Shown here: piece after piece, positions 8,412 through 37,603 of the stretch | Layout of the letters: each line of letters opens with the position of its first letter | Position numbering within the stretch: position 1 is the first letter of the stretch | Source of the DNA: Verrucomicrobiota bacterium | GTDB taxonomy: Bacteria > Verrucomicrobiota > Verrucomicrobiia > Palsa-1439 | DNA length: 64,000 nucleotides | Reading direction: 5' to 3' | Assembly (NCBI GenBank): GCA_003152315.1 | Contig: PLZV01000057.1 | Location: 200,065-264,064, forward strand | The notes under the pieces: generated by a model | What the model was told of the DNA's origin: nothing | The model's input: the letters and a program-made list of their open reading frames with translations, nothing else | Database searches by the model: none | Position numbers and translations under genes: made by a program

Positions 8412-10643
8412 ATGAAGGACCCCATCTGCGGCATGGACGTCGAGCCCGCCACTGCCGCAGGGTCGCACGTTCACGACGGGCAGACCTACTACTTCTGCAG
8501 CGCGCATTGTCTCGCGGAATTCCGCGCCGATCCCACCCGATACATTCAACCGCATCCGTCTGTGCCGCTTCCTGCCGATATTTCCGCATGGTACACCTGC
8601 CCAATGCATCCCGAGATTCGGCAGCCCGGTCCGGGTGCCTGCCCGAAATGCGGCATGGCGTTGGAACCCGAAGTGGCGAGCGGTGCAGAAGTCGAGAACC
8701 CGGAATTGGGACAAATGACGCGCCGATTCTGGGTTAGCCTCGGACTGAGCGTTCCCACTCTCGTCATCGCGATGCTTGGCCTGAAAGGACTCGCGTGGCT
8801 GCAGTTGGCGCTGGCAACGCCCGTGGTGTTGTGGGGCGGTTGGCCATTCTTTCAGCGTGGCTGGGCGTCGATCGTTCATCGCAGCCTCAACATGTTTACG
8901 CTGATCGCCCTCGGCACGGGCGTGGCATACGTGTATAGCGTCGTTGCCACGCTTGCGCCGCGGATGTTTCCCGAATCATTTCGCGGCCACAACGGTGGAG
9001 TGTCGGTGTATTTTGAGGCCGCCGCGGTAATTACAACTCTCGTCTTGCTGGGGCAGGTGCTCGAACTGCGCGCCCGCAGCAAAACATCGAGCGCCATAAA
9101 GGCGTTACTCGGACTGGCGCCGAAAACAGCGCGTGTCATCCATGATGACGCCACGGAAGCGGACGTGCCGCTGGAGCAGGTCAAACCCGACGACCGACTT
9201 CGTGTGCGCCCCGGTGAACGCGTGCCCGTGGATGGTGTCGTCTTGGAAGGTGCGAGCGCGGTTGACGAGTCAATGATCACGGGCGAGCCGATACCCGTGG
9301 AAAAGAAAACTGGCGACCGTGTGACCGGCGGCACCGTCAACGCGACGGGCGGCTTCGTGATGCGCGCCGAGCGCGTTGGCAGCGACACGCTGCTCGCCCA
9401 AATCGTTCGCATGGTCAGCGAAGCCCAGCGGAGCCGCGCGCCAATCCAGCGGTTGGCCGACGTTGTGGCTTCCTGGTTTGTCCCGGTCGTCATTGCCGCG
9501 GCGGTGATCACGTTTGTTGTGTGGGCCTGGCTCGGACCCGAACCAAAGTTTGCCTACGCCATCGTCAACGCGGTGGCCGTGCTGATCATTGCCTGTCCGT
9601 GCGCGTTGGGCCTGGCAACACCCATGTCGATCATGGTAGGCACGGGCCGTGGCGCAAGGGCGGGTGTTCTCATCAAGAATGCCGAAGCCCTGGAGGTTCT
9701 TGAGAAAGTGGACACCCTGCTTGTGGATAAAACGGGCACGCTCACCGAGGGCAAACCGAAACTCGTCACGGTCGTTGGTGAAGACGAGTCGGAAATGCTC
9801 CGTTTGGCGGCGAGCCTGGAACGCGCCAGCGAGCATCCCCTCGCTGCGGCCATCAACGCGGGCGCGGAACAGCGCGGGCTGAAGCTGTCGAGCGTCAGCG
9901 ATTTCCATTCGCTCACCGGCAAAGGAGTTGCCGGGACCATTGATGGCCACAAGATCATGATCGGCAACCAGCAACTCGGTATCGATTCCGGCAAGTTTGA
10001 CCAACGGGCGGAAAGCCTCCGTCAGGATGGCCAGACCGTCGTATTCGTTGCGGTTGATGGCCAGGTGGCAGGGCTGCTCGGCGTGGCCGATCCGATCAAG
10101 GCATCCACATCCGAAGCGATCCGGCTCTTGCAGGAGGACGGGATCAAGATTGTCATGGTGACCGGCGACAGTCGGACGACAGCGGCTGCTGTCGCACGAA
10201 AGTTGGGGATTGATGAAGTAGAAGCCGAAGTGTTGCCCGACCGAAAGCGTGAGGTGGTGCAACGACTCCAGCAGCAGGGCCGCATTGTCGCCATGGCGGG
10301 CGACGGCGTCAATGATGCGCCCGCTCTCGCCCAGGCGCAGGTTGGCATCGCGATGGGAAGCGGGACGGATGTCGCGATGGAAAGCGCCGGGATCACGCTC
10401 GTCAAGGGTGACTTGCGCGGGATTGTGAAGGCGCGGCGATTGAGTCGCGCCACCATGCGCAACATACGACAGAACCTCTTCTTCGCGTTTGTCTACAATG
10501 TGCTGGGTGTTCCCCTCGCCGCAGGCGCGCTATTTCCCGTGTTCGGCTTGCTGCTGAATCCAATGATTGCCAGCGCGGCCATGAGTCTGAGTTCCGTGTC
10601 CGTGATCAGCAACGCGCTGCGATTGCGGAAGATGAGTCTCTAG
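8412..10643 (+). CDS. copA: Copper-translocating P1B-type ATPase with N-terminal YHS and HMBD metal-binding domains
   Basis: CPC transmembrane motif ([12 protein letters not shown]), DKTGTLT phosphorylation motif and [10 protein letters not shown] hinge. N-terminal DPICGMDV...YYFCSAHC is a YHS domain. YTCPMHPE...CPKCGM is an HMBD-type domain. No classical CxxC HMA motif. Confidence 0.9.
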
Positions 10644-12340
10644 AACGGATTCAGCAATTGCGGCGGGACATCGGGTGCGCGGGCCGTCGAGTTGGTTGGC
10701 GCTGATGTAGTCAACGCCGCCATCATCAGGTTCAACATCTTATCTGCGTCCACGAATCCAACCTGCCGCAAGTCGCCGCGCTCGTGTCCATCCGGCGAGA
10801 AGAACGTCGTGGTGGGCATGCCCACGATGGCATAGTCATGGACCAGTTTATCCACGGCCTCGGACCCCTGTTTGGTCAAATCGACCTTTACCATCACGAG
10901 TTCCTTCGCCTTTTCGACCACGTGTGGATCGGTGTAGGTCTTGCTGTCCATTTCGTGGCACGGAATACACCAGTCCGCATAAAAATCCAGGAGCACCGGT
11001 TTGCCGGTGTTCACGAGTAACTCGGCGGAATAAGGTTTCCAATCAATGGGCGACTTGGCGTTCGTCCTCGTGCCGAAGATCGGCTTCACGAACCACACCG
11101 CCACGCCCAGCAGGACAATGCCGAATACCTTCTTCACCGAAACCATCCAGGCCCCCGATTTTGGCAGTTTGGTGAGGAGGCCGGAAAACGCGCCCAGGAT
11201 CACGTACGGCAACCCGAGCCCACACGCCAGCGTGAAGAACATCCACCAACCCAACCAGGGATCGCCGCGTTGCGCGACGAAAACAAAGACGCCGACAATG
11301 ATCGGCCCGACACACGGGGCAGCAATAATCCCGACAGTCGCGCCGAGGAGAAATACGCCGAGTAACCCGGCCTTCGATGACAATCCCGCGGCCTTCTGGA
11401 CGAGAAACTGTGGCGGCTGGAGTTCGTACAGCCCAAACATGCTCAACGCCAGGGCGACCATCATCCCAGCCACGCCCACCAACACCCACGGGCTCTGCAG
11501 CGCCGCACCGAATAACCCGCCCGTCAACGCCGCAGCCAACCCCAACGAGGAATACGTCAGGACGATGCCAAGAAAATACGCGAGGGCATGCGTCAGCCGC
11601 TTCTCGCCGGAACCCCCAAAGAAACTGACCGTTATCGCGATCATTGGGAAAACGCACGGGGTAAGGTTAAGCGCCAGTCCACCGATGAACAAAAAGACGA
11701 AGGTGAGAAACCACCCGCGCTCGCGCACCCGGGTGTCGACCGAGTTCTCCGTCATGGCGTTCCCTGTCGCCGCCGGTTTCGCCAACGGCGCCGCTTCGGT
11801 AACCGCGCCGAAGATATCGGGATGGACCGGCTGCGGCTTTTGCGGCGCGGAAACGATTTCGGTCTCAATGACGACGGGGATCGTCTTCGGCGCAATGCAG
11901 ACCTGATCGTTGCAGGCTTGGTAGCGCAATGAGCCTTCGAGTTTCACGGGCCCGGGCTGGGCCGCGGCGTTGACGTGTCCCTCGGCGAAAATAATCGTGT
12001 GACCCGCGTAGAGCGAGACTGGTCCGTCCGACCACGACACCTTCGTCGTTACACCTTTCGGGTAAACGATGCGGTCGATGACGATGGACGCAGTCGACGG
12101 AAGCGTGAGCGTGGTCGGGATCAGCCCTTCGGCATTCGCGGGATTGGCGTTGATGTGCCAATGCTCGGCGACATCGATGACGACCGCGACACGGAAAGGC
12201 GCGTCCGCTGCAAGTTTATCGACCGACAGAATCGCTGTGACCCTGGCCTCGCCTTGCGGCGCCCCCACTTGCCCTTCGACGGCCAGCGGCGTCAGCAAGA
12301 CCAGCGCGAGCGCGATCGAGGATGGTCGGAAACGACTCAT
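10640..12340 (-). CDS. dsbD: Thiol:disulfide interchange protein DsbD (CcdA-type membrane core plus C-terminal thioredoxin domain)
   Basis: 566 aa. N-terminal periplasmic domain, then a CcdA-like core with paired Cys motifs (TPCVFPM, APCVGP), then a C-terminal WCIPC thioredoxin motif. Its start overlaps the copA stop region on the opposite strand. Confidence 0.85.
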
Positions 12341-12879
12341 TGCTTAAAGATGGCTCTCAGGTCGGCTTGGAGAACATTCGCTTCGGTGACACCGACGTAT
12401 TTCTGGATAATGTTTTGGTTCTTGTCGATGACAAACAGGGTGGGAATGGCGGTCAGGCCGCCGAAGGCTTGAATGGTGTCGTAGTCGGGCGGGTATAACG
12501 GGAAACCCAATCCCTGCTCTTCGGCAAAGCTCTTCATCCGCTGGGCGCCGGGCTGTTCAAGGACGAGGCCCAGCACCGCCAGGTTCGTCTCGCTGTATTC
12601 CTTGAGCAGGTCGTTCAAGATGAGCGCCTGTCTCTCGCTGGGTTTGTCCCCGGTGGCAAAAAAGCAGACAATCAGCGCCTTCCCTTTGAAGTCGGCGAGC
12701 TTGACGAATTGACCCCGTCCGATCTTTAACGAGAAGGAGGGGGCGGCTGTTGCCGTGCGGGCGTCGTTCGTTGCGCCGAATGCGCGACTCAGCAGCACGA
12801 TCACCACCAACAACACAACGCAGCCCACCGCCAGCGAAATCGTCAGACGGCTCGGCCCCGCATTTGGTTTGGCATTCAT
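12337..12879 (-). CDS. TlpA/ResA-like membrane-anchored thioredoxin (redoxin family)
   Basis: In-frame ATG at 12877-12879 gives MNAKPN followed by a TM anchor. The redoxin fold has a degenerate active-site region. A 4-bp ATGA overlap with dsbD suggests an operon. Confidence 0.7.
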   Translation of the reverse strand: MNAKPNAGPSRLTISLAVGCVVLLVVIVLLSRAFGATNDARTATAAPSFSLKIGRGQFVKLADFKGKALIVCFFATGDKPSERQALILNDLLKEYSETNLAVLGLVLEQPGAQRMKSFAEEQGLGFPLYPPDYDTIQAFGGLTAIPTLFVIDKNQNIIQKYVGVTEANVLQADLRAIFKQ

Positions 12880-13083
12880 TTTTTGGGTTTTCGATACTTC
12901 CTTAATAACCCCAACTGAGAGGACGGTTCCGACCACACTATTACTAAACTCCTCCCCCGTGCGCAAGCGCGGCCTTCCGCCGAGCCAACCGACCGGGGCG
13001 CGCTTGCCGTATACCGCTCCTAATGCAAGTAATACCCCGAAAAGTGGTCTCGGCGGTGCCAAAACCCATCATAAACCCCCCGA

Positions 13084-13118
13084 AATTGGGTTCGTTTTTC
13101 CAAAACGAACCCATTTGC
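13084..13118. repeat. Palindromic pair of the recurring 10-mer GGGTTCGTTT / AAACGAACCC (5-bp spacer)
   Basis: aaatTGGGTTCGTTTttccaAAACGAACCCattt. A third copy lies at 13190-13201. Confidence 0.6.
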
Positions 13119-13453
13119 AAACGTCGCTGCAAACGGCACAAGTTATTTTCGATAAAGGTGATACATCGAAAAGTACGCGAAAACAAAATGGGTTCGTTTC
13201 GTAGAATGGCACATTTCTTTCAAGCATACCTCCGCTGAAGGCGGCCGCGTCCGCCATCGCTCCCCGACCTATGGCAGATACCGCAACTCCTTTTCGGGAT
13301 TTACTATTCATCCATTTCCCCGACCATACCCCATCCTGCACCCCATGTCCAGCCAAATTATCGGTTTACGATTTACGTCCAGTCTGCTGATAAGAAAGCC
13401 TTGTTGAGGCGTTTTGGTGTCGCGGGAAAGTCCTTATTTGCCGCGAGGACGAT

Positions 13454-13921
13454 TCATGGATGAACCTGTTCACCAACTGACTTGAACTGACGAATAGTCG
13501 GATTTGCCCGCTTGCGTTTTCCGATAATTGGTTTCAACCGGCTAAACTCAGCTTTCCACACCCCGATGAGGTTGTATTCCTTACTTAAAACTCCGAGAAG
13601 CACGTAGTCACATTCATGGTCAGAGAATCTGCTCAAACTCCCGCTATTCTTTGGCAATTCACCGTTTTCGCCACGGCGTGTTTTTATCTGAACACATCGG
13701 CCTTTCGCGTCGACGGCGTCAAAGCCCTCGGAGCGGGGGTCTTCTACCATCTTCAATCCAAGTGCTCGACAGACGAAAATCTCTCCAATTTCTCCGGTGA
13801 TGCCGAATTTACGCCCGCAGTTCGTGGCGCGTTGATAAACCAGTTCAGCCTTTATCGCGCTGGCCGCTGCATCCATGATGGCATCAGACACAACGAGGGT
13901 TTTGGTTTCGTGATGTTTCAT
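13454..13921 (-). CDS. Hypothetical protein with PD-(D/E)xK-like nuclease motif
   Basis: The start at 13919-13921 is preferred because it has an AGGCGGAG RBS. The protein carries the segments GFDAVDA...VQIKTR. It lies in an AT-rich islet. The assignment is weak. Confidence 0.35.
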   Translation of the reverse strand: MKHHETKTLVVSDAIMDAAASAIKAELVYQRATNCGRKFGITGEIGEIFVCRALGLKMVEDPRSEGFDAVDAKGRCVQIKTRRGENGELPKNSGSLSRFSDHECDYVLLGVLSKEYNLIGVWKAEFSRLKPIIGKRKRANPTIRQFKSVGEQVHP

Positions 13922-14161
13922 CTTGAATACTCCGCCTGGTTTTGATGCGCGCATAGCGTTGAATTAAAGCGGGACCAGTTTGAAGCGAGCGTAGGGTGCA
14001 GAGATGTGGAGCCGCAGCGGGAATCCGGGCTGGCCGGCGCGTATAGGAGCGGCGACACGAACAGCGACGGAACGCATGGTAGAGGCGTTTTGATGTCGTG
14101 ACGGGGGGAACTCGTGAGCAAATTATTCTGCATTTGATTTTGCACTTCGCACCGATTTATT

Positions 14162-15139
14162 TCAGCCCGTACGGATGCCATGCTCTACGATCAATTTTGC
14201 GAATTGTTCTCCATCCACAAGTTCAATACGGAGTCCCTTTTCCTCAAAGTATTGTTCGGCGGCTTGTACAGCATCTTCACCGATTGAACCAGAGGTGACT
14301 ACCATTCCCAATGTGGCTGACACGGCCTCCATGCCACCAATCAATTGCTGAACGACATCGCGCCCAACCGGCGGCTCGGGACGCCAGTGCTTTGCTTGAA
14401 CGGCTATAATCTGTTGAAACGTACCCGCGACACGAAATGTGGCAACGAGGTCAGCACCTTTGTCCTGACTTCGGGGAATGATTTGCACTTCCTCTGCACC
14501 TAACCCAAGCAGAACCGTCTGGATGAGTCGTTCAAACCCGAAACTCTCCATGCGCCCTCCCTGCAACTCAGAGAGCACTTCACGAATTAAACGGGATTGC
14601 AGATCACTCTCAAATTTGGGTGCCTGCCCTTTTCCTGCCACGGCCAAACATTCTTGGATTTCTCCAAGTAAATCAGTTGCAGTGGCAGAAGTTCCCTGGG
14701 TCTTCATCCGCGAAATGAGTGCGGAGCGGGCGATTTGACGCGGGATTGGCTTTTTCTTGTTTAGCCATTCAACGACACGGCGATAAGATGAATCATCGTC
14801 GGCCTTTGCAGAATTGTAGGTTGCTGGTCCGGTGATTTTCGCCACATAGAATTCGCTGCCATACGGAACAACAACAAGGTCATCGGGTTTCATCTCTCGT
14901 ATGAAACGCCACATGTTGCCAGCCGCGGCACCGGCTTTTCGCCGTGTGGGTTCCTCCGAGTAGTAGGTTTTGTCGAGAATTTCTCGAAACTGTATCCAGT
15001 CTAGTTTGGGGTCAAGCAACCCTTTGGCGTAAGCCCATCCAATAATAATTTGATCCTCGTGTAGGGCTTCGGGGACTTTGTCAATTCCGCTGGGTGCAAT
15101 TCGTAAGACAAATGCGGACTGTTCCTTTGTCTGGTTCAT
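14162..15139 (-). CDS. mrr: Mrr-family (type IV-like) restriction endonuclease
   Basis: 325 aa. The C-terminal Mrr_cat-like block reads DKGADLVATF...AVQAKHWR...VGRDVVQQLIGGM...MVVTSGSIGEDAVQ...LVDGEQFAKLIVEHGI. It sits in an AT-rich islet. Confidence 0.65.
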   Translation of the reverse strand: MNQTKEQSAFVLRIAPSGIDKVPEALHEDQIIIGWAYAKGLLDPKLDWIQFREILDKTYYSEEPTRRKAGAAAGNMWRFIREMKPDDLVVVPYGSEFYVAKITGPATYNSAKADDDSSYRRVVEWLNKKKPIPRQIARSALISRMKTQGTSATATDLLGEIQECLAVAGKGQAPKFESDLQSRLIREVLSELQGGRMESFGFERLIQTVLLGLGAEEVQIIPRSQDKGADLVATFRVAGTFQQIIAVQAKHWRPEPPVGRDVVQQLIGGMEAVSATLGMVVTSGSIGEDAVQAAEQYFEEKGLRIELVDGEQFAKLIVEHGIRTG

Positions 15140-15339
15140 ATCCTCAATTTTGTTCCCGATTCTCTCGGTTGTCGAGCAACGGAATTATGAACCTAAGAGG
15201 TTCAGACATTGGGTTTTGATAGTGCCGTCGAAAGGGTCTAATCATTGATACATTTGAAACATCATAGTCTTGGGTCAGAATCCTTTGCGCTGACCGTACC
15301 TTGACACTCCACTATCACCGGTATAGCCTTTACCTACTG

Positions 15340-15711: not shown

Positions 15712-15760
15712 GACCTGATACCATACCGGTGGTGTCTCTTTCGTCCGTCTCCGATCAGTC

Positions 15761-16579: not shown

Positions 16580-16613
16580 AAAGCCCTCGTTGGAAACAAC
16601 GAGGGCTTTTTTT
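16580..16613 (+). terminator. Rho-independent terminator-like hairpin with T-run
   Basis: AAGCCCTCGTTG-GAAA-CAACGAGGGCTT followed by TTTTTT. It lies 270 bp after the ECF sigma stop and 20 bp before the anti-sigma start. Confidence 0.6.
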
Positions 16614-16632
16614 GCCGCCAACGTATTATTAG

Positions 16633-16971
16633 GTGATGAACCAAAATGACGACAGATTAAGTGCGCTCTTGAAGCGATGGCGCGATATCGAGCCACGAGG
16701 CAATTTCGAGGCCAACGTCTGGCGCCAGATCCGAATCGCCGCCGCGCCAGCGGTCGATACGGTCAACTGGATTGATCTAATCGGGCGCTTATTGTGGCAG
16801 CCCGCCTGGTCAGTTGTCGCAGCGATGGTGGTTGCGCTGATCGTCGGCGTCTGGGGCGGCATTGCCTCGGTTCCCCGGCAAACCGACAGGCCGACAGCGG
16901 AACTCCAATTCCTTTCCCCGGGTACGCTGGCGGGCAGCTACGCACAAATGCCAGCGAAGGTGACGAAATGA
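16633..16971 (+). CDS. Putative membrane anti-sigma factor for the adjacent ECF sigma
   Basis: 112 aa. The N-terminal LSALLKRWRDIEP motif is common in short anti-sigmas. A single TM segment follows (AWSVVAAMVVALIVGVWGGIA). Confidence 0.5.
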   Translation: MMNQNDDRLSALLKRWRDIEPRGNFEANVWRQIRIAAAPAVDTVNWIDLIGRLLWQPAWSVVAAMVVALIVGVWGGIASVPRQTDRPTAELQFLSPGTLAGSYAQMPAKVTK

Positions 16972-17435
16972 AGAAGACATTGATGGCCCTGGCGGTTTTG
17001 ACGCTCCTCGTCACCGCGGTTTCCTTCGGTGTGGCGCGCTGGTCAGTCCACTGCGCCATGGCCGCGCCAACCGTGAATCTGAACGATACGGCGTGGCTCA
17101 AGCACGAGCTGAACCTGACGGACGCGCAAACCGCCGAGGTCGGGAAACTCGAGAAGAATTACAACACGAGAATCGGGAATTGCTGCGACAAGCATTGCGA
17201 CGCGCGTCTCGCCCTGAGCAAAGAGCTGGAAAAATCGCCGGTCGATCTCCCCAAAGTCAACGCCTGCGTTGACCAAATGACCGCCGCGCAGGCCGAGTCG
17301 GAACACGCCACGCTCGATCACATTCTGGGAATTCGCGCCTTGCTGACGCCGGAACAGCAACAGCGCTATGCAAAACTTGTCAGCCAACAAGTCTGTAACG
17401 CCTGCCCAATCGATATGTCCCACAAGGCGCAATGA
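16968..17435 (+). CDS. Periplasmic CpxP/Spy/ZraP-like (LTxxQ-motif) stress or metal-sensor protein
   Basis: ATGA overlap with the anti-sigma stop. It has a signal peptide and LTDAQ and LTPEQ motifs. The family is often linked to metal-responsive envelope stress. Confidence 0.5.
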   Translation: MKKTLMALAVLTLLVTAVSFGVARWSVHCAMAAPTVNLNDTAWLKHELNLTDAQTAEVGKLEKNYNTRIGNCCDKHCDARLALSKELEKSPVDLPKVNACVDQMTAAQAESEHATLDHILGIRALLTPEQQQRYAKLVSQQVCNACPIDMSHKAQ

Positions 17436-18694
17436 AACCAATCATTGTCGCCATTCTCCTGGCAGTTGTAACCGCCACGGCCCGCGCCCAGGTGAGTAAT
17501 TCGTTGCAAGCCTGCATCGACACCGCGCTGGCCAATAATCCGGAGATCGCGGCCTCGCAGCGGAAGTGGGAAGCCGCGCGTCAGAAAATCCCACAAGCCC
17601 GCGCGCTGGATGATCCGATGATCGGCGTGATTGTCGATCGCGTGGAGACGAAGCGCTTCGATACGTTCGACGAGAATGAGTGGATGATTTCGCAGACTGT
17701 CCCGTGGTTCGGCAAGCGCGATTTACGCGGCGGCGTCGAGGCCGGCGCAGCAACACGGGCGGAGATGGATTGGCGGATGAAAAAGTTGGATGTCGTCGCG
17801 ATGGTCAAACAGGCCTACTACGATCTTTGGCAGGCCCAGCGTGAATTGGAAGTAAACGAGCGCAACCAGGAATTGTTGCGGCAGTTTGTGGAAGCGGCGC
17901 GGACGCGCTACGAGACCGGCAGCGGCACGCAGTCCGATCTCATCCGTGCGCAGAACGAATTGGCCAAGCTGGCCGAGGACCGTGTCGATCGCGTGCGCAC
18001 GCAACAACAGGCGCTGGCGGATTTGAACCAACTGCTGCGGCGTCCGCCGGAGACGCCCGTGGATATTGGCCCCGAAGTCACCGCGCCCGTCGTGGAGTTG
18101 GGCATAACCCTGGAACAACTCCAGGCGGCGGCGGAGGATCGGCCGGAATTACTTGGGGCACGTGAAGGCGCCGTCCGAAGCGCCACGGCAGCACTGGCGT
18201 TGGCGAAGAAGGGCTACTATCCCGATGTCCAGTTTCGGTTTGAAGCGCGGCAGTATAGCGGCGCGAGCGGCATCCAGGAATATGACACGGGTGTGTTCAT
18301 CAATTTCCCATGGCTTAACCACGGCAAGTACAAAGCCGCGGTCGCCGAGGCGCGAGCCAACCTCGACGCCAGCCGTGATGATTTGGACGCGATGCGCGTG
18401 CGCACCGCCTCCGAGGTAAGGAAATTATACGATGGCGTGCATACGATGCATCATCACTATGACCTGTACACAGAAAGACTGATCCCGCAGCAACGGCTCG
18501 CCGTCGAGTCCGCGCGCGCGGCGTACGAGACCGGTGCCGGCGGGTTCCTGGACTTGCTGGATGCAGACCGCATGCTGTTTGATTTGGAAATGCAGAACTT
18601 GCATCATGCCGCGGAGTTTCAGCGGCTCCTGGCCTCGTTGGAACGGACGGCCGGCGGTCGATTGTCATTGCCGCTGGTAGAGGAGAAAAAATGA
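17432..18694 (+). CDS. cusC: TolC-family outer-membrane efflux protein (CusC-like)
   Basis: 420 aa with a signal peptide and two OEP repeat halves. It is translationally coupled to the previous gene (ATGA) and to cusB. Confidence 0.8.
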   Translation: MKPIIVAILLAVVTATARAQVSNSLQACIDTALANNPEIAASQRKWEAARQKIPQARALDDPMIGVIVDRVETKRFDTFDENEWMISQTVPWFGKRDLRGGVEAGAATRAEMDWRMKKLDVVAMVKQAYYDLWQAQRELEVNERNQELLRQFVEAARTRYETGSGTQSDLIRAQNELAKLAEDRVDRVRTQQQALADLNQLLRRPPETPVDIGPEVTAPVVELGITLEQLQAAAEDRPELLGAREGAVRSATAALALAKKGYYPDVQFRFEARQYSGASGIQEYDTGVFINFPWLNHGKYKAAVAEARANLDASRDDLDAMRVRTASEVRKLYDGVHTMHHHYDLYTERLIPQQRLAVESARAAYETGAGGFLDLLDADRMLFDLEMQNLHHAAEFQRLLASLERTAGGRLSLPLVEEKK

Positions 18695-20088
18695 AACGGG
18701 GTCTTCGCTTTGTCGCCGTCGCGCTGGCGCTCGCATCGTGCGTCGCGTTGGTTTCCTGCGGAAAGAAGGGACCGGAAGGGCCGGAGGCCGCTGCCGAGGC
18801 CGGGAAACCGGCAAAGTATCACTGCCCGATGCATCCGTCCGTTACGTCGGACAAACCCGGTAACTGCCCGATCTGCAACATGAAACTGGTGCCGATTGAC
18901 AACTCGGGACATGACCGCGCGGGAGAGACCAGGGTGGCAACGAAGAAAATACTGTACCGTTCGTCGATGAACCCCAACGAGGTCAGCGACAAGCCCGGCA
19001 AGGACTCGATGGGCATGGAGATGGTACCGGTGGAGGTGACCGCGGGCGCGGGAACGGAACCACCCGGCCTGGCGTCGGTTTCAATCACGCCGGCAGCGCG
19101 CGAACGCATGGGGCTGGCTTTCAGCACGGTGGAGAGACGCTCTCTCTCTCGTGATGTTCGCACTTCCGCGCGCATCGTCCCGGATGAAGTGCGGCTCTAC
19201 CACGTCACGGTAAAGGCCGAGGGCTGGGTCGAGCATTTGCATGAGGTGACGAAGGGCGCCTTCTTCAAGAAAGGTGTGCCGTTGATGAAGATTTACAGCC
19301 CCGAACTGGTCACGGCGGGGGAGGACTATCTGGTGGCCTTGCGAAACCGTCAGAAGATTCTGGCCGCCGGCGGGTCGGCGAATCCTGACGCGGCCAGCGA
19401 TGCGGAGATGATGGTTACTTCGGCGCGGAAGCGGCTGGAACTCTTGGATTTTCCCGCGGCACAAATCGAGAGAATCGAGCGCACTGGAGAAGTGGAGAAG
19501 GAGATGACGATCTACTCGCCCGTCGACGGCTGGGTGGCGGAGATTAACATCGCGGCCGGCCACAAGATCAGGCAGGGTGAATCGCTGCTGGTCCTGGCCG
19601 ATTACTCAGTGGTGTGGGCGAACGCAGATGTGTACGAACCCGACCTGCCGTTCGTAAAGATTGGGATGCCGGTCGAATTGACGGTGCCGTACTATCCGGA
19701 TAAAGCGTTCCGCGGTGATGTGTCATTCATTTCGCCGACGCTCGATCCGGAGACCCGCACGGTGAAAGTGCGTATGAACATCCCCAACCCAAATCTGCTG
19801 CTCAAACCAGAGATGTACGCTGACGCGCGGTTGTCGTACGAACTCGGTGAAAGGCTGGCCGTGCCGGTGGGAGCCGTGATGTTTTCCGGCGACCGCGTTT
19901 ATGCGTTTCGTGACGGAGGTGATGGCCGACTGGTTCCTGTCCTGTTGAAACTGGGAGTCCGTAGCGACGGATACTTTGAAGTGCTCTCCGGGCTGAACGA
20001 AGGCGATCGCGTGGTCACATCGGCCAACTTCCTGGTGGACTCCGAATCGTCAATGAAGGCCGCCATCGAAGCGTTGGCTGGAAAATAG
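18691..20088 (+). CDS. cusB: RND efflux periplasmic adaptor (CusB-like) with N-terminal HMBD metal-binding motif
   Basis: Lipoprotein-like start, then YHCPMHPSV...CPICNM, which is the same HMBD motif as in copA. The C-terminal region is an HlyD-like barrel. Confidence 0.85.
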   Translation: MKRGLRFVAVALALASCVALVSCGKKGPEGPEAAAEAGKPAKYHCPMHPSVTSDKPGNCPICNMKLVPIDNSGHDRAGETRVATKKILYRSSMNPNEVSDKPGKDSMGMEMVPVEVTAGAGTEPPGLASVSITPAARERMGLAFSTVERRSLSRDVRTSARIVPDEVRLYHVTVKAEGWVEHLHEVTKGAFFKKGVPLMKIYSPELVTAGEDYLVALRNRQKILAAGGSANPDAASDAEMMVTSARKRLELLDFPAAQIERIERTGEVEKEMTIYSPVDGWVAEINIAAGHKIRQGESLLVLADYSVVWANADVYEPDLPFVKIGMPVELTVPYYPDKAFRGDVSFISPTLDPETRTVKVRMNIPNPNLLLKPEMYADARLSYELGERLAVPVGAVMFSGDRVYAFRDGGDGRLVPVLLKLGVRSDGYFEVLSGLNEGDRVVTSANFLVDSESSMKAAIEALAGK

Positions 20089-20091
20089 TCC

Positions 20092-23000
20092 ATGATCCGC
20101 AAGATCATCCAGTTCAGCGCCGCGAATCGCCTCCTGGTCATCATGCTGGTGGCTGCGGCGCTGGCCTACTCGTTTTACACGCTGGGCCACATCCGCCTCG
20201 ATGCCATCCCCGACCTCAGTGACACGCAGGTCATCGTCTCGACGAAATGGGACCGCAGTCCGGACATCCTCGAGGACCAGGTCACGTATCCGATCATTAC
20301 CGCATTGCTCGGCGCGCCGCGCGTGAAGGCGATTCGTGGGTTCAGCGATTTCGGGTTCTCGTATGTGTACGTGATCTTCGAAGACGGCACCGACCTCTAC
20401 TGGGCGCGCAGCCGCGTCAATGAGTACCTCTCGAAGATCGCGGGACAGTTGCCGACGGGAGTGACTCCCGAACTCGGTCCGGATGCGACGGGCGTTGGCT
20501 GGGTGTACCAATACGCGCTCGTGGACAAATCCGGCAAACACAGCCTCGCCGATTTGCGCAGTTATCAGGATTGGGTCCTGCGGTACACGCTCCAGAGCGT
20601 GCCGGGCGTAGCCGAGGTCGCCGGACTGGGCGGTTTCCAGAAACAGTACCAGGTGACCGTCGATCCCGTGCGGCTTCAGGCCTACGGCGTCGGCGTCGTG
20701 GAAATCATGGACGCGATCAAACACAGCAATAACGAAGTCGGCGGCCGCTTGATCGAGTGGAACGGCAAGGAATTCATGGTGCGCGGACGCGGCTACGTCA
20801 AGTCGACCGAGGACCTCGGCCAGGTCGCACTGAAGGTGAACAAGGAAGGCACGCCGGTACTATTGCGCGACGTGGCAAACATCGCCATCGGGCCGCAGAT
20901 TCGTCGCGGCATCGCGGACCTCAACGGCACCGGCGACGTGGTCGGCGGCATCGTCATTATGCGCCACGGGGAGAACGCACTCAACGTCATCGGACGCGTG
21001 AAGGCGAAGTTGCAGGAAATCAAGCCGTCGCTGCCGGAGGGCGTCGAGATTGTCTCGACGTACGACCGCTCCGAGTTGATCAAGAAGTCCATCCACAACC
21101 TGACGGACGACCTGGTTATGGAAATGATTATCGTCAGCTTTGTCGTTCTCTTCTTCCTCTGGCACATCCCCTCGGCGATTGTGCCGATCATCACGATCCC
21201 GATCTCGGTCGCGCTGGCGTTCATCCCGATGTACTTCATGGGCATCACCTCGAACATCATGAGCCTCGCGGGCATCGCGATTTCCATCGGCGTGCTGGTG
21301 GACGGCGCGATAGTCGAAGTCGAGAACGCCTACAAGAAACTCGAGCGCTGGCAGGAGGAGGGGCGGCAGGGTGATTTTCACAAAATTCGCCTCGAAGCGT
21401 TGCTGGAGGTCGGACCCTCGGTATTCTTCTCGCTCCTGGTAATCGCGGTGGCGTTCTTGCCCGTGTTCACGCTCGTGGACCAGGAAGGGCGCCTCTTCAA
21501 GCCGCTCGCGTACACGAAGACGCTGGCGATGGCCCTGGCTGCCCTGCTCGCCGTCACCCTCGATCCCGCCGTGCGCATGCTGTTCACACGCATGGAACCA
21601 TTCAAGGCACGCCCACGCTGGTTGGCATGGCTGCTGAACGGCGTTCTCGTCGGGAAGTATTACCCCGAAGAAAAACATCCGGTCAGCCGCGTGCTGTTTT
21701 GGTTGTACGAGAAGCCGTGTCGCTTCGTCCTGCGTTACCCGAAAACGATCATCGCGCTCGCGGCGTTGATCGTGGCGACGACCGTGCCCGTGTATTTCAA
21801 ACTGGGTTCGGAATTCATGCCGCCGCTGAATGAGGGCGCGGTCCTTTACATGCCGACGACGCTACCCGGTATCTCGGTGACGGAAGCGGCACGGTTGATG
21901 GCGTCCGAGGACCGGATTCTGAAACAATTTCCAGAGGTCATCAGCGTCCATGGCAAGGCGGGCCGGGCGGACACCTCTACCGATCCGGCGCCGTTCTCGA
22001 TGATGGAGACGGTGGTGCAACTCAAGCCGATGTCCGAGTGGAGACCGAAGCCGCGCTTCTTCTCCTCGTGGCCCGGACCGTTGCGCTCCGTACTCGGTCG
22101 CATCTGGCCCGAACACGTTTCATGGGACGACCTCATCAACGAAATGGATCGCGCGTTGCAGATTCCCGGGAGCGTCAACGCATGGACCATGCCGATCAAG
22201 AACCGCACCGACATGCTGGCCACGGGTATTCGCACGCCCGTCGGTATAAAAGTATTCGGCGCGAACCTCGATGAGATCCAGCGCATCGGCGAGAACCTCG
22301 AGGCTATTCTGCGGAAAGTGCCGGGCACGCGCAGCGTTTTTGCCGAACGCGCCGCGGGCGGTTACTTCGTGGACATCATCCCGAAACGCGAGGCAATTGC
22401 CCGTTACGGGTTGACCGTCGAAGACGTGCAGAACGTGATCATGACCGCCATCGGCGGCGAGACGATTTCGACGACGATTGAAGGCCGCGAGCGGTACACG
22501 ATCAATCTTCGTTACCCGCGCGATCTGCGCAGTGACCTCGATCAGCTCGAGCACGTGCTCGTCATGTCTTCGCTCGGACGGCAGGTGCCTCTCAAGGAGG
22601 TGGCGGATATCTCGCTCGTCAACGGCCCCTCGATGATTCGCGACGAGAATGGGATGCTGGCGGGTTACGTGTATGTGGACATCACGGGCCGCGATGTGGG
22701 CGGTTACGTCGAGGACGCCAAGCGCGCGGTCGCCGCCGAACTGAAGCTGCCGACGGGTTATTCGATTGTCTGGAGCGGCCAGTACGAGAATATGCTGCGC
22801 GTGCGCGAGCGATTGAAGGTCGTGTTGCCGCTGACCATCGTGCTGATCTTCCTGTTGTTGTACGCGAACACCAAATCGACGTTCAAGGCGGCGGTGGTCA
22901 TGCTCGCAGTTCCGTTCTCGCTCGTCGGCGCGGTGTGGTTGCTCTGGCTGCTCGGCTACAACATTTCCATCGCGGTCTGGGTGGGAATGATTGCCCTGAT

Positions 23001-23373
23001 GGGACTCGACGCGGAGACGGGCGTGTTTATGTTGTTGTTCCTGGATTTGTCCTACGACGAAGCGAAGCGCAATGGCAAGCTGCGCAATTTGTCCGACCTG
23101 CACGAAGCGATCATTCACGGCGCGGTGAAACGCATTCGCCCGAAGATGATGACGGTGGGCGCGGCCGTGATGGGCTTGATGCCGATCATGTGGTCCATAG
23201 GCAGCGGCGCGGACATGATGAAGCGCATCGCCGCCCCCATGGTCGGCGGATTGTTCACCTCGTTTCTGATGGAACTACTCGTCTATCCCGCCATCTACCT
23301 CCTGTGGAAATGGCACAAAGAAGTGAAACCGTCGCTCGCTCCGGAAGCCTTTGGGAAGATTCAGACAGAATAA
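20092..23373 (+). CDS. cusA: Heavy-metal efflux RND transporter, CusA/CzcA family
   Basis: 1093 aa with 12-TM RND topology. HME-family segments are present. Confidence 0.9.
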   Translation: MIRKIIQFSAANRLLVIMLVAAALAYSFYTLGHIRLDAIPDLSDTQVIVSTKWDRSPDILEDQVTYPIITALLGAPRVKAIRGFSDFGFSYVYVIFEDGTDLYWARSRVNEYLSKIAGQLPTGVTPELGPDATGVGWVYQYALVDKSGKHSLADLRSYQDWVLRYTLQSVPGVAEVAGLGGFQKQYQVTVDPVRLQAYGVGVVEIMDAIKHSNNEVGGRLIEWNGKEFMVRGRGYVKSTEDLGQVALKVNKEGTPVLLRDVANIAIGPQIRRGIADLNGTGDVVGGIVIMRHGENALNVIGRVKAKLQEIKPSLPEGVEIVSTYDRSELIKKSIHNLTDDLVMEMIIVSFVVLFFLWHIPSAIVPIITIPISVALAFIPMYFMGITSNIMSLAGIAISIGVLVDGAIVEVENAYKKLERWQEEGRQGDFHKIRLEALLEVGPSVFFSLLVIAVAFLPVFTLVDQEGRLFKPLAYTKTLAMALAALLAVTLDPAVRMLFTRMEPFKARPRWLAWLLNGVLVGKYYPEEKHPVSRVLFWLYEKPCRFVLRYPKTIIALAALIVATTVPVYFKLGSEFMPPLNEGAVLYMPTTLPGISVTEAARLMASEDRILKQFPEVISVHGKAGRADTSTDPAPFSMMETVVQLKPMSEWRPKPRFFSSWPGPLRSVLGRIWPEHVSWDDLINEMDRALQIPGSVNAWTMPIKNRTDMLATGIRTPVGIKVFGANLDEIQRIGENLEAILRKVPGTRSVFAERAAGGYFVDIIPKREAIARYGLTVEDVQNVIMTAIGGETISTTIEGRERYTINLRYPRDLRSDLDQLEHVLVMSSLGRQVPLKEVADISLVNGPSMIRDENGMLAGYVYVDITGRDVGGYVEDAKRAVAAELKLPTGYSIVWSGQYENMLRVRERLKVVLPLTIVLIFLLLYANTKSTFKAAVVMLAVPFSLVGAVWLLWLLGYNISIAVWVGMIALMGLDAETGVFMLLFLDLSYDEAKRNGKLRNLSDLHEAIIHGAVKRIRPKMMTVGAAVMGLMPIMWSIGSGADMMKRIAAPMVGGLFTSFLMELLVYPAIYLLWKWHKEVKPSLAPEAFGKIQTE

Positions 23374-23464
23374 CTGGAACGAGTGAATGATTTGAAGCAT
23401 CCTAGTAGCGGGTTCTTAGCAACCTTGCTTTCGCAGAAACCGAACAAACAACCAGAAGGAGGAG

Positions 23465-23839
23465 TTGATGAAAAAACTCGTTGCATTGAGTGTCGCGTTT
23501 GCCGTTGGTTTGATCATGGCGTGGAGCGTGCAGGCGGAGGATCAAAAGACCGATGCCAGCGCCCAAGTGACCGTCAAAGGCGAGGTGCTCGATATGGCTT
23601 GTTACCTCGACCACGGAGCTCACGGCGAAAAACACGCCCAGTGCGCGGCGACGTGCATTGAGTCCGGCTTGCCCGTGGGAATCAAAGGCGAAGACGGCAA
23701 GACCTATTTGCTGATCGGCGAACACAAGCCGCTCAACAAGACGCTGGCCGAGTACGCCGGCAAGACGATCACCGTCAAAGGCAAACTCGCCACCCGCGAT
23801 GGGATCAACCTGATCTCCAACGCGGAAATCCAGAAGTAG
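23465..23839 (+). CDS. Small secreted Cys/His-rich protein downstream of cusA (possible periplasmic metal-binding accessory protein)
   Basis: Signal peptide, then MACYLDHGAHGEKHAQCAATC. The protein is predicted to be beta-rich. No family recognised by eye. Confidence 0.5.
   Translation: MMKKLVALSVAFAVGLIMAWSVQAEDQKTDASAQVTVKGEVLDMACYLDHGAHGEKHAQCAATCIESGLPVGIKGEDGKTYLLIGEHKPLNKTLAEYAGKTITVKGKLATRDGINLISNAEIQK

Positions 23840-37527: not shown

Positions 37528-37603
<76 letters not shown>

Follow-up and report, generated by a model that had tools for sequence, protein, structure and literature searches.

Candidate CnrYXH-type control of a Cus copper/silver efflux pump and a candidate new RNA family at a Verrucomicrobiota locus

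Organization of the copper efflux locus

We analyzed a 64,000-nt stretch of a Verrucomicrobiota contig (PLZV01000057.1; hereafter, the window), in which positions 8412 to 23839 carry the following features.

8412..10643, plus strand: copA, P1B-type Cu(I) ATPase, YHS and HMBD at the N terminus (Pfam; NCBIfam TIGR01511)
10640..12340, minus strand: DsbD/ScsB-like membrane thiol:disulfide reductase (DsbD_TM, Thioredoxin, and a weak DsbD_N match in Pfam)
12337..13062, minus strand: thioredoxin-fold protein, AhpC/TSA-Redoxin (Pfam)
13063..15300, no strand: low-GC insertion with DUF6998 and Mrr genes (Pfam, GC content)
13454-13954, minus strand: DUF6998 gene (Pfam)
14162-15139, minus strand: Mrr-type restriction endonuclease gene (Pfam)
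15301..15329, plus strand: predicted sigma-70-type promoter of orf123-sigma, TTGACA-17 nt-TAGCCT (conservation)
15340..15711, plus strand: orf123, secreted Cys/His-rich protein (alignment, position before the sigma gene)
15761..16312, plus strand: ECF sigma factor, 183 aa (Sigma70_r2 and r4_2 in Pfam)
16313..16435, plus strand: unstructured, sequence-conserved blocks 5' of the RNA core (alignment)
16436..16613, plus strand: conserved structured RNA core, ~175 nt (covariation, covariance model, MFE)
16580..16613, plus strand: intrinsic terminator, stem GCCCTCGTTG / CAACGAGGGC, GAAA loop, T7 tract (sequence)
16601..16627, plus strand: CnrH-like ECF promoter motif, GAGGG 16601-16605, 16 nt, CGTATT 16622-16627
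16636..16971, plus strand: putative anti-sigma factor, 111 aa (role from position and topology; family alignment)
16968..17435, plus strand: CnrX/NccX-like membrane-anchored periplasmic sensor (PDB sequence matches, AF2, Foldseek, alignment)
17432..18694, plus strand: cusC-like outer-membrane factor (OEP domains)
18691..20088, plus strand: cusB-like adaptor, two HMBD stretches at the N terminus (HlyD_D23, HMBD)
20092..23373, plus strand: cusA, Cu(I)/Ag(I)-type heavy-metal RND pump (alignment to E. coli CusA)
23468..23839, plus strand: orf124, secreted OB-fold protein (conservation, AF2)

The initial annotation treated copA, dsbD-tlpA, and cusCBA as contiguous; in fact, the 2.2-kb DUF6998/Mrr insertion and orf123 intervene before the regulatory genes. 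With 50% GC against about 60% on either side, the insertion stands between the regulators and the genes for DsbD and the thioredoxin-fold protein. It is found in near-identical metagenome contigs, is missing from syntenic loci (L003, L007, L009, and others), and lies outside the copper system. Downstream of it, an ECF sigma factor, a single-pass membrane protein, and a Metal_resist/LTXXQ protein do precede cusCBA as first described, with domains assigned by Pfam. The proposed ATGA chaining holds for the overlaps at 16968, 17432, and 18691, and cusA begins 3 nt past cusB as stated, but the sigma gene is unchained and lies 323 nt from the anti-sigma gene. These 323 nt are conserved non-coding DNA. 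Public gene callers place no gene there, and we rejected a 107-aa ORF filling the gap, as its frame is not kept between loci and variation lacks 3-nt periodicity.

The order of sigma gene, small membrane protein, LTXXQ-type protein, and cusCBA recurs in at least 15 loci from Verrucomicrobiota, Lentisphaerota, and other MAGs, and this synteny persists down to 32 to 45% identity of the LTXXQ-type protein. The operon has no sigma gene within 10 kb in three separate sets of loci (L001/L002/L006, L010, and L018), an observation that we counted against the CnrYXH-type reading developed below.

The Cus pump and its neighbors

The pump is of the Cu(I)/Ag(I) type. CusA scores 1061 bits to E. coli CusA and 483 bits to the Zn pump ZneA, and the positions aligned to M573, M623, and M672, the Cu(I)/Ag(I) methionine triad, are all Met. 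CusB matches the CusB NCBIfam model at 175 bits, and its two HMBD stretches bear out the HMBD motif reported earlier. The orf124 protein, which is kept downstream of cusA and in several contigs lies directly 3' of the sigma-RNA unit, carries a conserved Met/Cys/His-rich helical insert, DMACYLDHGAHGEKHAQCAATC. Its AF2 model is an OB barrel with weak SilF matches, and none of at least 1381 homologs has a Pfam domain. In function, it may correspond to CusF as a metal-binding partner in the periplasm.

CopA exceeds the TIGR01511 cutoff (627 versus 397 bits) and has CPC at residue 395 and DKTGT at 439; Pfam agrees with the earlier description of YHS and HMBD in place of an HMA domain. The DsbD-like protein has one CIPC motif, and its gene is syntenic in related loci. 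The name tlpA does not suit the adjacent gene, whose product has an AhpC/TSA-Redoxin fold with zero CxxC motifs; its real start is probably downstream of that of the longest ORF, and public gene calls range from 180 to 209 aa.

Sigma factor, putative anti-sigma factor, and CnrX-like sensor

The 183-aa sigma factor has no C-terminal extension. Against PDB sequences it scores about 113 bits to AlgU/RpoE/SigW-like proteins and 60 bits to CnrH, and this closer resemblance to the former was counted against a CnrYXH-type reading. Directly 5' of the sigma gene in related loci lies orf123, with a C...CC...HCHC motif, an invariant C-terminal YLxTHAFLI, and no Pfam domain in any of 39 homologs. The two genes are probably cotranscribed. 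Upstream of the pair, TTGAC(A/G)-N17-TAnnnT is kept in 12/12 aligned loci and would act as a sigma-70-type promoter; with its end only ~10 nt from the ATG, it would leave a very short leader.

The LTXXQ-type protein had been labeled CpxP/Spy/ZraP-like. By sequence and predicted fold, it is instead a homolog of CnrX and NccX, which it matches among PDB sequences at E values of about 1e-3. Its AF2 model (pLDDT 88.9) retrieves only CnrX/NccX structures in the Foldseek top 15, above Spy, CpxP, and ZraP, and, like NccX, the protein carries a transmembrane helix at its N terminus. The alignment shows C73, H76, C77, M104, Q108, and E112 as invariant and H118 as nearly invariant. Of the five CnrX ligands, a single one is kept (H119, here H118), and C-x2-H-C plus a Met is invariant instead; the loss of the other four we counted against the CnrYXH-type reading. 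From conservation and modeled helix geometry, we guess that C73, H76, and C77, with M104 nearby, form the metal site.

The 111-aa membrane protein appears, from its position and topology, to be an anti-sigma factor. Its ~55-aa cytoplasmic N terminus (LLxxWxxxEPxxxFxxxVWRRI) is followed by one transmembrane helix and then by a periplasmic tail in which ELQFLxxGTLAGxY is conserved; the conserved start is ATG 16636 rather than GTG 16633. In related loci, its gene always adjoins the CnrX-like gene. It has no match in PDB or Pfam and no detectable similarity to CnrY or any anti-sigma domain, a further point that we counted against the CnrYXH-type reading.

We considered whether the LTXXQ-type protein is simply coexpressed with the pump and, as ZraP, Spy, or CpxP would, buffers metal or acts as a chaperone in the periplasm, with the 111-aa protein an accessory subunit and the sigma factor controlled otherwise. 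Weak NCBIfam matches to Spy, CpxP, and ZraP, the failure of the 111-aa protein to fit any anti-sigma family, and the several loci with this pair and cusCBA but no adjacent sigma gene would fit such a role. However, the nearest proteins by both sequence and fold are sensors, CnrX and NccX, and not chaperones, and the protein is membrane anchored like NccX. The 111-aa protein is strictly paired with it and has CnrY-like topology (short cytoplasmic N terminus, one transmembrane helix, short conserved periplasmic tail), and an ECF-type promoter motif precedes the pair. Thus, we consider a buffering role quite unlikely and favor a CnrX-like sensor acting with an anti-sigma factor.

An ECF-type promoter motif before the anti-sigma gene

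Each locus has a single plus-strand match to GAGGG-N16-CGTAT, immediately before the anti-sigma gene, a small Cys-rich ORF, or, in one locus (L033), copA. The 16-nt spacing is fixed, and the motif also occurs in loci lacking the RNA described below or an adjacent sigma gene. In the window it overlaps the 3' arm and T tract of a terminator; it is not merely half of that hairpin, because loci without a preceding hairpin have it at the same position. The ATG lies 9 nt past the -10 element, so the anti-sigma mRNA would be nearly leaderless. The motif resembles cnrYp, the experimentally mapped CnrH promoter (-35 CCGAGG, -10 CCGTATA), and matches the reverse complement of the quoted ECF291 consensus (PMC13492112). 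GAGGG is an unusual -35 sequence for an ECF promoter, a feature counted against the CnrYXH-type reading.

The initial annotation proposed looking for an ECF-type promoter shared by the anti-sigma gene and copA, and held that an ECF module governs the whole supercluster in place of CusRS. The promoter motif was found before the anti-sigma gene, whereas neither copA nor dsbD is preceded by GAGGG-N16-CGTA in the window. Conserved gene order, the ECF-type motif, and a lack of two-component genes among the checked ORFs of at least 220 aa around the locus agree with ECF control in place of CusRS. Given the absence of the motif before copA, the evidence backs such control of anti-sigma-sensor-cusCBA, and control of the entire cluster is unsupported.

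A conserved structured RNA between the sigma and anti-sigma genes

A conserved RNA and its terminator in the sigma/anti-sigma gap had been missed. The 5' part (16313..16435) has an RNAalifold energy of about 0 and contains the block TTTAACCAC...TGATTCA (16327-16350) and GGAAT-N17-GTT at fixed spacing (16401-16425). Among the 43 non-redundant sequences in which the GTT anchor could be located, most, distant ones included, preserve the GAAT-N17-GTT spacing, and the element may serve the RNA as an ECF-type promoter.

The core that follows contains a long-range helix pairing GCGAUGGUG (16490-16498) with CACCUUCGC (16541-16549), a variable hairpin (16503-16528), a conserved CCUCACC (16532-16538), and an invariant UAUCCCGUCGGAAGCUGAA (16563-16581). 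In the alignment, 92.9% of cells are paired and 18 pairs changed on both sides, with 0 of 500 shuffles scoring as high. This covariation involves the long-range helix, the variable hairpin, and the terminator, whose stem covaries over 40 sequences (99% paired), and G-U pairs favor the plus strand. The covariance-model match is 184 bits, the MFE z-score is -5.9, and the region has no coding signal. No Rfam family matches by sequence or structure, and we propose the RNA as a candidate new family. The invariant 19-mer is carried by 49 metagenome contigs, and in most of about 50 further contigs the RNA lies 3' of a sigma gene; L027, L035, L044, and L058 have the RNA without a linked sigma gene.

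This RNA is most likely a small regulatory RNA. Possible sources are an ECF-like promoter of its own (GGAAT-N17-GTT), the sigma 3' untranslated region (3'UTR), or both. Small RNAs that depend on ECF or stress sigma factors or derive from 3'UTRs include MicA, RybB, and MicL for sigma-E and CpxQ from the cpxP 3'UTR, and CcsR1-4 are tandem small RNAs with C/U-rich anti-SD motifs. Like these, the RNA is small, terminator ended, and adjacent to an envelope-stress regulator, a likeness that we take as a lead rather than a test. It shares C/U-rich conserved segments (CCUCACC, plus CCCUCCUUA in most members), a tandem paralog in one lineage (L058), and a candidate ECF-type promoter. Unlike these RNAs, it has a more complex fold than is typical and no Rfam homology. 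Target searches with the RNA found nothing.

Alternatively, the RNA could be a cis-acting attenuator or riboswitch in which a ligand, perhaps a metal ion, allows readthrough into anti-sigma-sensor-cusCBA from the sigma or an internal promoter, with GAGGG...CGTAT as expression platform rather than promoter. The terminator ends ~20 nt before the ATG, leaving no room for a conventional leader, and in L058 the terminator of the paralog directly adjoins the ATG of the following gene. The helices of this complex fold overlap and are not all compatible with one simple nested structure, and many contigs have copper-related genes downstream. Several arrangements argue against this mechanism. Seven loci (L020, L025, L026, L017, L018, L005, and L023) have the motif before the anti-sigma gene without RNA or hairpin, and in L013 the RNA stays beside the sigma gene, 4.4 kb from an anti-sigma gene with its own motif copy. 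In the clade of the window the terminator 3' arm doubles as the promoter -35 element, whereas in the L016/L019 clade the terminator and GAGGG motif are separate. We found no anti-terminator covarying with the terminator stem, and tandem paralogs are more typical of trans-acting small RNAs. We therefore regard attenuation as very unlikely and continue to view the RNA as a small RNA, whose strong terminator would insulate the inducible operon from sigma transcription.

A model for signaling across the envelope

We propose, with a probability of roughly 65%, that the locus encodes a CnrYXH-type trans-envelope signaling module that has come to serve a Cu(I)/Ag(I) Cus pump. From the observed homologies, synteny, motif conservation, and RNA covariation, we infer the following binding, induction, and transcription steps. 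The sigma factor and orf123 would be made constitutively from the sigma-70-type promoter, and the single-pass anti-sigma factor would hold sigma at the membrane while its periplasmic tail docks on the sensor. Metal binding at the thiolate-rich site (C73, H76, C77, and nearby M104), whose chemistry would suit Cu(I)/Ag(I), would remodel the sensor and free sigma. Freed sigma would then fire the GAGGG-N16-CGTAT promoter, yielding a nearly leaderless mRNA for the anti-sigma factor, the sensor, cusCBA, and probably orf124. Because the anti-sigma gene sits in this sigma-driven transcript, its product would give negative feedback. CopA and the DsbD-like reductase, whose genes lack the motif, are probably supporting neighbors that export cytoplasmic copper and keep periplasmic cysteines reduced.

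The module could respond to another signal, such as Zn/Cd/Hg, metals that likewise prefer thiolates, Ni/Co as in Cnr, or periplasmic thiol/disulfide stress via the sensor cysteines. Cys/His sites also bind Zn, Cd, and Hg, the DsbD-like reductase and thioredoxin-fold genes are conserved neighbors, and the candidate promoter of the RNA has what we take to be the form of SigR/SigH-class thiol-stress ECF promoters. Such signals appear unlikely given a pump with the CusA methionine triad that is much nearer CusA than ZneA, a neighboring CopA-type ATPase, the same promoter motif before copA in L033, and the lack of conservation of the CnrX Ni/Co ligand set, and we favor Cu(I)/Ag(I).

Comparison with known systems

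An envelope-stress-style ECF route had seemed unusual for cus genes. Since the sensor is CnrX/NccX-like, the arrangement is instead that of the known CnrYXH paradigm for heavy-metal RND pumps. As in CnrYXH-CnrCBA and NccYXH-NccCBA of Cupriavidus metallidurans (ECF291), a sigma factor, a small single-pass anti-sigma factor, and a membrane-anchored sensor of the four-helix CnrX fold are encoded directly upstream of an RND CBA pump. The order here is H-(RNA)-Y-X-CBA rather than Y-X-H-CBA, with a structured RNA between sigma gene and operon, and the phylum is Verrucomicrobiota. The pump is CusA-type with a Met triad rather than of the Ni/Co type, the sensor retains only the H119 equivalent of the CnrX ligand set alongside its invariant C-x2-H-C plus Met, and the anti-sigma factor lacks sequence similarity to CnrY. 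Unlike cnrH, the sigma gene would lie outside the ECF-driven transcript, under a sigma-70-type promoter and without autoregulation, a difference also counted against the CnrYXH-type reading.

The locus shares with E. coli CusRS-CusCFBA the tripartite CusC/CusB/CusA pump for Cu(I)/Ag(I) with its Met triad. It differs in having no nearby CusRS among the checked ORFs of at least 220 aa, HMBD modules in CusB, and, instead of CusF, the unrelated OB-fold orf124 after cusA. Copper-responsive ECF sigma factors are known from Myxococcus xanthus, namely CorE and CarQ; CorE works without an anti-sigma factor and senses cytoplasmic copper directly, by means of a Cys-rich extension at its C terminus. By sequence comparison, the sigma factor here would likewise serve copper-handling genes, but unlike CorE it lacks an extension and is paired with a membrane anti-sigma factor and a periplasmic sensor. 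We know of no member of ECF281 or ECF290 characterized for copper. These groups of ECF classification 2.0 are catalogued with an anti-sigma factor at +1 and, at +2 of the ECF sigma gene, a "heavy-metal resistance" protein (PF13801), a genomic pattern that the locus shares; their anti-sigma factors are described as zinc-finger or RskA-like (PMC7826278). Neither domain was detected here.

CnrYXH-type control is thus already known; at this locus, it appears to have been moved onto a Cus pump and is accompanied by a candidate new RNA family.

Organization of the copper locus

Combining an ORF listing with Pfam and NCBIfam scans gave the following gene map, in which X denotes a gene for an LTXXQ-type, membrane-anchored periplasmic protein, and orf123 and orf124 encode small secreted proteins on either side of the regulatory and pump genes.

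Genes of the copper locus (window coordinates)
7226-8356: holA
8412-10643: copA, with YHS, HMBD and P1B-ATPase domains and without an HMA domain
10640-12340, minus strand: DsbD-like gene
12337-13062, minus strand: AhpC/TSA-Redoxin fold gene
13454-13954, minus strand: DUF6998 gene
14162-15139, minus strand: Mrr-type restriction endonuclease gene
15340-15711: orf123
15761-16312: ECF sigma gene
323 nt: gap between the sigma and anti-sigma genes
16636-16971: 111-aa single-pass membrane protein (putative anti-sigma)
16968-17435: X, Metal_resist/LTXXQ protein
17432-18694: cusC
18691-20088: cusB, with two HMBD stretches
20092-23373: cusA
23468-23839: orf124

The cus side is laid out as the initial annotation described it, with ATGA overlaps at the anti-sigma/X, X/cusC and cusC/cusB junctions and 3 nt between cusB and cusA. 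Domain scans likewise bear out the description of CopA as having YHS and HMBD modules and no HMA domain, and that of an HMBD motif in CusB, where two stretches were found. The sigma gene, previously taken to be chained to the anti-sigma gene, is separated from it by the 323-nt gap. Nor are copA, dsbD and the cus genes contiguous, being interrupted at 13063-15300, with the thioredoxin-fold gene on one side and the orf123 promoter on the other. This stretch, which carries the DUF6998 and Mrr genes, has 50% GC, versus ~60% in its flanks, and is present in several near-identical metagenome contigs; we interpret it as an insertion because syntenic MAG loci are without it. The thioredoxin-fold protein beside DsbD (12337-13062), formerly labelled TlpA, reads CFFATGDKPS where a CxxC active site is expected and is therefore not a canonical TlpA.

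Elsewhere in the window, 37528-37875 contains a tRNA gene directly followed by the large SRP RNA, just upstream of dnaX, and a second tRNA lies at 44063-44134, all ordinary housekeeping RNAs. On the minus strand, 46018-52700 contains two long ORFs, of 1581 aa and 646 aa, and its GC content of ~51% is below that of the rest of the window.

The putative periplasmic sensor resembles CnrX and NccX

In the CnrYXH system, the sigma factor CnrH, the anti-sigma factor CnrY and the periplasmic sensor CnrX control the CnrCBA RND pump (PMC6851896). The earlier label of X as CpxP/Spy/ZraP-like is correct at the level of the superfamily (PF07813, PF13801), but X is membrane-anchored and is closer to CnrX and NccX by sequence and fold. 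NccX (4clv, E = 8.7e-4) and CnrX (E of ~1e-3) were the sole meaningful matches when X was compared with PDB sequences using phmmer. An AlphaFold (AF2) model built from 21 homologues (pLDDT 88.9) contains an N-terminal transmembrane helix (residues 2-31) followed by a helical hairpin domain. Each of the best 15 Foldseek matches to this model is a chain of CnrX (TM-score normalised to the target, 0.75-0.82) or of NccX (0.57), and the sequence and fold searches alike rank these proteins above Spy, CpxP and ZraP. Because X is closest to CnrX and NccX on both counts, the regulatory module is best read, from sequence and model, as an instance of the CnrYXH paradigm.

The CnrX ligand set H42/H46/E63/H119/M123 is not kept in the X family. 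Only H118, the equivalent of H119, is nearly invariant; the H46 equivalent aligns in the window X but is unconserved across the family, and the E63 and M123 positions are substituted. The invariant residues in the family alignment are C73, H76, C77, M104, Q108 and E112. C73, H76 and C77 share one face of helix 52-87, and M104 and Q108 occupy the antiparallel helix 94-125, about as far from the hairpin turn as the first three residues. Since these placements correspond, we propose that X contains a putative Cys2-His(-Met) site that would suit Cu(I)/Ag(I).

Sigma factor, putative anti-sigma factor and predicted promoters

The 183-aa sigma factor contains Sigma70_r2 and r4_2 domains (Pfam) and matches CnrH with E = 2.6e-15, but AlgU/RpoE/SigW-like sigmas score above CnrH. 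The 111-aa protein has a conserved, predicted cytoplasmic N-terminus (LLxxWxxxEPxxxFxxxVWRRI), one transmembrane helix and a conserved, predicted periplasmic tail (ELQFLxxGTLAGxY). Its size and topology fit the short, single-pass CnrY type, in which the sigma-binding cytoplasmic N-terminus comprises ~45 aa, and its gene adjoins X in every case in our synteny scan. Searches with the single sequence and with a 19-member profile matched no PDB chain, CnrY included, and a Pfam search gave no convincing anti-sigma family match; its assignment as a putative anti-sigma factor comes from context. A 107-aa ORF at 16309-16632 was rejected as the anti-sigma gene, or as a real gene: its frame is unconserved, codon periodicity is absent, its composition is odd, and public gene callers skip it.

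We scanned all related loci, found in other genomes and metagenome contigs and designated by L numbers, with the regular expression GAGGG.{16}CGT[AT]. It matches once per locus, on the gene strand and directly before the anti-sigma ATG, with the exceptions that it precedes a small Cys-rich ORF in L014, L016 and L019 and copA in L033; just two matches occur elsewhere in all loci together. In the window, GAGGG lies at 16601-16605, CGTATT at 16622-16627 and the anti-sigma ATG at 16636, a distance that implies a nearly leaderless mRNA. This predicted sigma-dependent promoter before the anti-sigma-X-CBA genes is conserved in all loci and resembles the CnrH-dependent cnrYp, for which a 2026 C. metallidurans transcription-start study gives a -35 element CCGAGG and a -10 element that overlaps CCGTATA, and which earlier primer-extension and run-off experiments had verified (PMC13492112). 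The ECF Hub consensus for ECF291, quoted in the same study as ATACGC / CCCTCA, has the reverse complement TGAGGG...GCGTAT and would correspond to the present motif if, as we infer, its strand is flipped. The initial annotation had called for a search for a shared ECF promoter upstream of the anti-sigma gene and of copA. Such a motif precedes the anti-sigma gene but, even with one mismatch allowed, is absent upstream of copA and dsbD in the window.

Upstream of orf123-sigma, all 12 of 12 aligned loci contain TTGAC(A/G)-N17-TAnnnT (15301-15329 in the window), by sequence a housekeeping-type promoter, which suggests that the sigma factor is probably made constitutively and is not autoregulated. 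In addition, the sigma gene lies upstream of the motif with a terminator between, outside the motif-driven operon and in an arrangement other than an autoregulated yxh operon. A sigma-54 reading of TTGGCAC-N5-ATGTT was not adopted because the -12 GC is missing. Within 15301-15340 and 16622-16636, the two predicted promoters end ~10 nt before their own ATG, so each transcript of the regulatory locus would have little or no leader.

Thus, the locus shares with CnrYXH an ECF sigma factor, an anchored sensor of the CnrX/NccX fold and a predicted sigma-type promoter before the regulator and pump genes, but it keeps neither the CnrX ligand set nor the autoregulated yxh operon. In our assessment, the protein module is a variant of CnrYXH. 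In the ECF classification 2.0, ECF281 and ECF290 have an anti-sigma gene at +1 and a PF13801 protein at +2, and ECF291, the group of CnrH, has the full pump operon (PMC7826278). Reviews list only CarQ and the cytoplasmic CorE type as copper-responsive ECF sigmas (PMC6851896, PMC10141476), and periplasmic metal sensing through an anti-sigma factor is known for Ni/Co only, in Cnr and Ncc. Our full-text literature searches found neither a CnrX-like copper sensor nor any description of the intergenic RNA presented below.

The pump and its neighbors

The window CusA matches E. coli CusA with 1061 bits and ZneA with 483 bits. All three positions aligned to M573/M623/M672 are Met (LYMPT at 585, FSMMET at 635 and RTDMLAT at 705), and CopA passes the NCBIfam copper P-type ATPase model. 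We therefore regard the pump, as predicted from these signatures, as a copper/silver pump. It shares the Met triad with Cus-type systems, whereas their CusRS two-component control and CusF chaperone were not found here: a partial check of ORFs of ≥220 aa around the locus revealed no response regulator or histidine kinase, and orf124 encodes an OB-fold protein unrelated to CusF. As a candidate CusF/SilF homologue, orf124 was rejected, its similarity being of the generic OB-fold type (E of ~0.1 for SilF).

The orf124 product (23468-23839) is secreted and has an OB fold, into which an invariant helical segment rich in Met, Cys and His (DMACYLDHGAHGEKHAQCAATC) is inserted. Its family comprises at least 1381 proteins, none with a Pfam domain, and its gene follows cusA in the window and comes straight after the sigma-RNA unit in several contigs; it may be a periplasmic copper-binding protein. 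The product of orf123 (15340-15711) is a secreted, Cys/His-rich protein of 123 aa with the pattern C...CC...HCHC and an invariant C-terminal YLxTHAFLI. Its gene is always directly upstream of the ECF sigma gene, and none of its 39 homologues has a Pfam domain; it could be part of the signalling module. Copper-induced dsbDEG is known from the literature (as quoted in PMC10141476), and DsbD with the thioredoxin-fold protein plausibly keeps the periplasmic cysteines of X, orf123 and orf124 reduced under copper stress.

Conservation across related loci

A scan of one genome per species yielded 23 loci with relatives of X, every one from Verrucomicrobiota, Lentisphaerota or an unclassified MAG. By tblastn with the window's proteins, the close clade has the order orf123-sigma-(gap)-anti-sigma-X-cusC-cusB-cusA-orf124, with DsbD and thioredoxin-fold genes upstream and divergently transcribed. 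We detected copA in only four X loci (L003, L016, L023 and, as a short fragment, L009), beside dsbD or a few kb upstream. In the distant members L020, L025 and L026, the sigma and anti-sigma genes are directly adjacent, and the L001/L002/L006 group, L010 and L018 lack a sigma gene in the 10 kb upstream.

In some clades, a small secreted Cys-rich ORF of ~120 aa (CxMC...CxxC...HTC) is located between the RNA/promoter and the anti-sigma gene (L014, 9196-9590; L016, 9272-9617; L019, 4012-4370). In L014, the terminator-plus-promoter unit is duplicated, with one copy on each side of this ORF. L003 contains, between holA and copA, a 780-aa DUF2231-HMBD membrane protein (362-2704) that is missing in the window.

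A candidate structured RNA family between the sigma and anti-sigma genes

Across loci that keep the whole of a ~175-nt element in the sigma/anti-sigma gap, the gap shows 75-85% nucleotide identity, with no ORF conservation and no codon periodicity. It ends in a strong terminator composed of GCCCTCGTTG, GAAA, CAACGAGGGC and T7 (16583-16613). Rfam gave no match in the window at the gathering threshold and, at E up to 10, only terminator-like fragments.

We assessed the structure that we derived on 40 non-redundant sequences. In it, 92.9% of cells are paired and 18 pairs are changed on both sides; none of 500 shuffles reaches any of five measures, and slid controls pair only 34-55%. A long-range helix, GCGAUGGUG/CACCAUCGC, has both-sided changes in seven of its eight pairs, covariation is also present in a variable hairpin and in the terminator, and G-U pairs indicate the plus strand. 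Some covariation also occurs in a local hairpin flanking the 5' strand of the long-range helix, which implies a pseudoknot or alternative folds. RNAalifold proposed a different helix, GGAUGUU/AACACC; we prefer GCGAUGGUG/CACCAUCGC because L028 compensates the latter and breaks the former. A 5' helix, CGACG/CGUCG, was discarded, being only 81% paired with no pair changed on both sides. The folding z-score of the window element is -5.9. On these sequence comparisons, the intergenic RNA is well supported as a candidate new family of structured RNAs.

Searching with a covariance model located one copy in the window (16436-16620) and none in loci whose sigma and anti-sigma genes adjoin. An invariant 19-mer, TATCCCGTCGGAAGCTGAA (16563-16581), occurs in 49 metagenome contigs and, in nearly all that reach far enough, lies ~160-335 nt 3' of, and on the same strand as, an orthologous sigma gene. 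What comes after the element differs among contigs and can be anti-sigma-X-cusCBA, the small Cys-rich ORF, orf124, copA or an unrelated gene. In L013, the element stays beside the sigma gene, and the anti-sigma gene is 4.4 kb away. The element is kept in L027, L035 and L044 though orf123-sigma is lost, and it occurs in an unrelated context in L048, L058 and L061. L058 has two tandem, diverged copies (10821-10991 and 11022-11163) with no sigma gene in context, flanked by histidine kinase/regulator-like and O-methyltransferase-like genes as judged by eye from translations; the terminator of the second copy abuts the next gene's ATG. L028 and L066 share a REP-like hairpin, GTAGCCGCACCCTTTAYGGGTGCGC, which is inserted after the sigma stop codon, ahead of the RNA element, and may be a dispersed repeat of both genomes.

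The 5' 120-130 nt of the gap contains conserved blocks but no consensus structure. Within it, GGAAT-N17-GTT (16401-16425) has a fixed spacing in most of the 43 sequences with a locatable GTT anchor, distant ones included. This sequence has the form of an ECF-type promoter, from which the RNA would start near 16432-16440.

At the other end of the element, the descending arm and T tract of the terminator coincide, in loci of the window clade, with the predicted -35 element and spacer of the CnrH-like promoter. The motif is not simply half a terminator, being present without a preceding hairpin in L020, L005, L017, L018, L023, L025 and L026, and in the L016/L019 clade terminator and motif are adjacent yet separate. 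A search for RNA targets, using a crude RNAduplex comparison with the translation-initiation regions of the locus genes and complementary 10-mers, found nothing above background.

Proposed mechanism and implications

We propose that a sigma-70 promoter would drive orf123-sigma, that this transcription would stop at the RNA terminator, and that the RNA would be made additionally, or instead, from its own promoter. The 111-aa protein would sequester the sigma factor, and the CnrX-like sensor X would detect periplasmic Cu(I)/Ag(I). Freed sigma could then fire GAGGG-N16-CGTAT to produce mRNA for the anti-sigma factor, the sensor, cusCBA and probably orf124.

We put at roughly one in four the chance that the ~175-nt RNA represents a new riboregulator class for metal/envelope stress in Verrucomicrobiota. 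It might be an ECF-driven small RNA serving as the repressor arm of the copper response or, more boldly, an element that responds to metal and, through its terminator, controls whether transcription of the constitutive sigma gene continues into the anti-sigma/sensor/pump operon; in both cases, its DNA would have been co-opted so that a single sequence acts as terminator arm and as the -35 element of a CnrH-like promoter. A terminator that overlaps a promoter -35 element is an unusual case of dual-use sequence.

If the proposed mechanism is true, a CnrX scaffold has acquired a Cys/His/Met site with which it reports periplasmic Cu(I)/Ag(I), providing a natural sensor pair in which to examine how a single fold encodes metal selectivity. 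The compact set of sigma factor, anti-sigma factor and GAGGG-N16-CGTAT promoter would then be usable as an orthogonal copper biosensor, and a CnrX-like module would replace CusRS in a poorly studied phylum.
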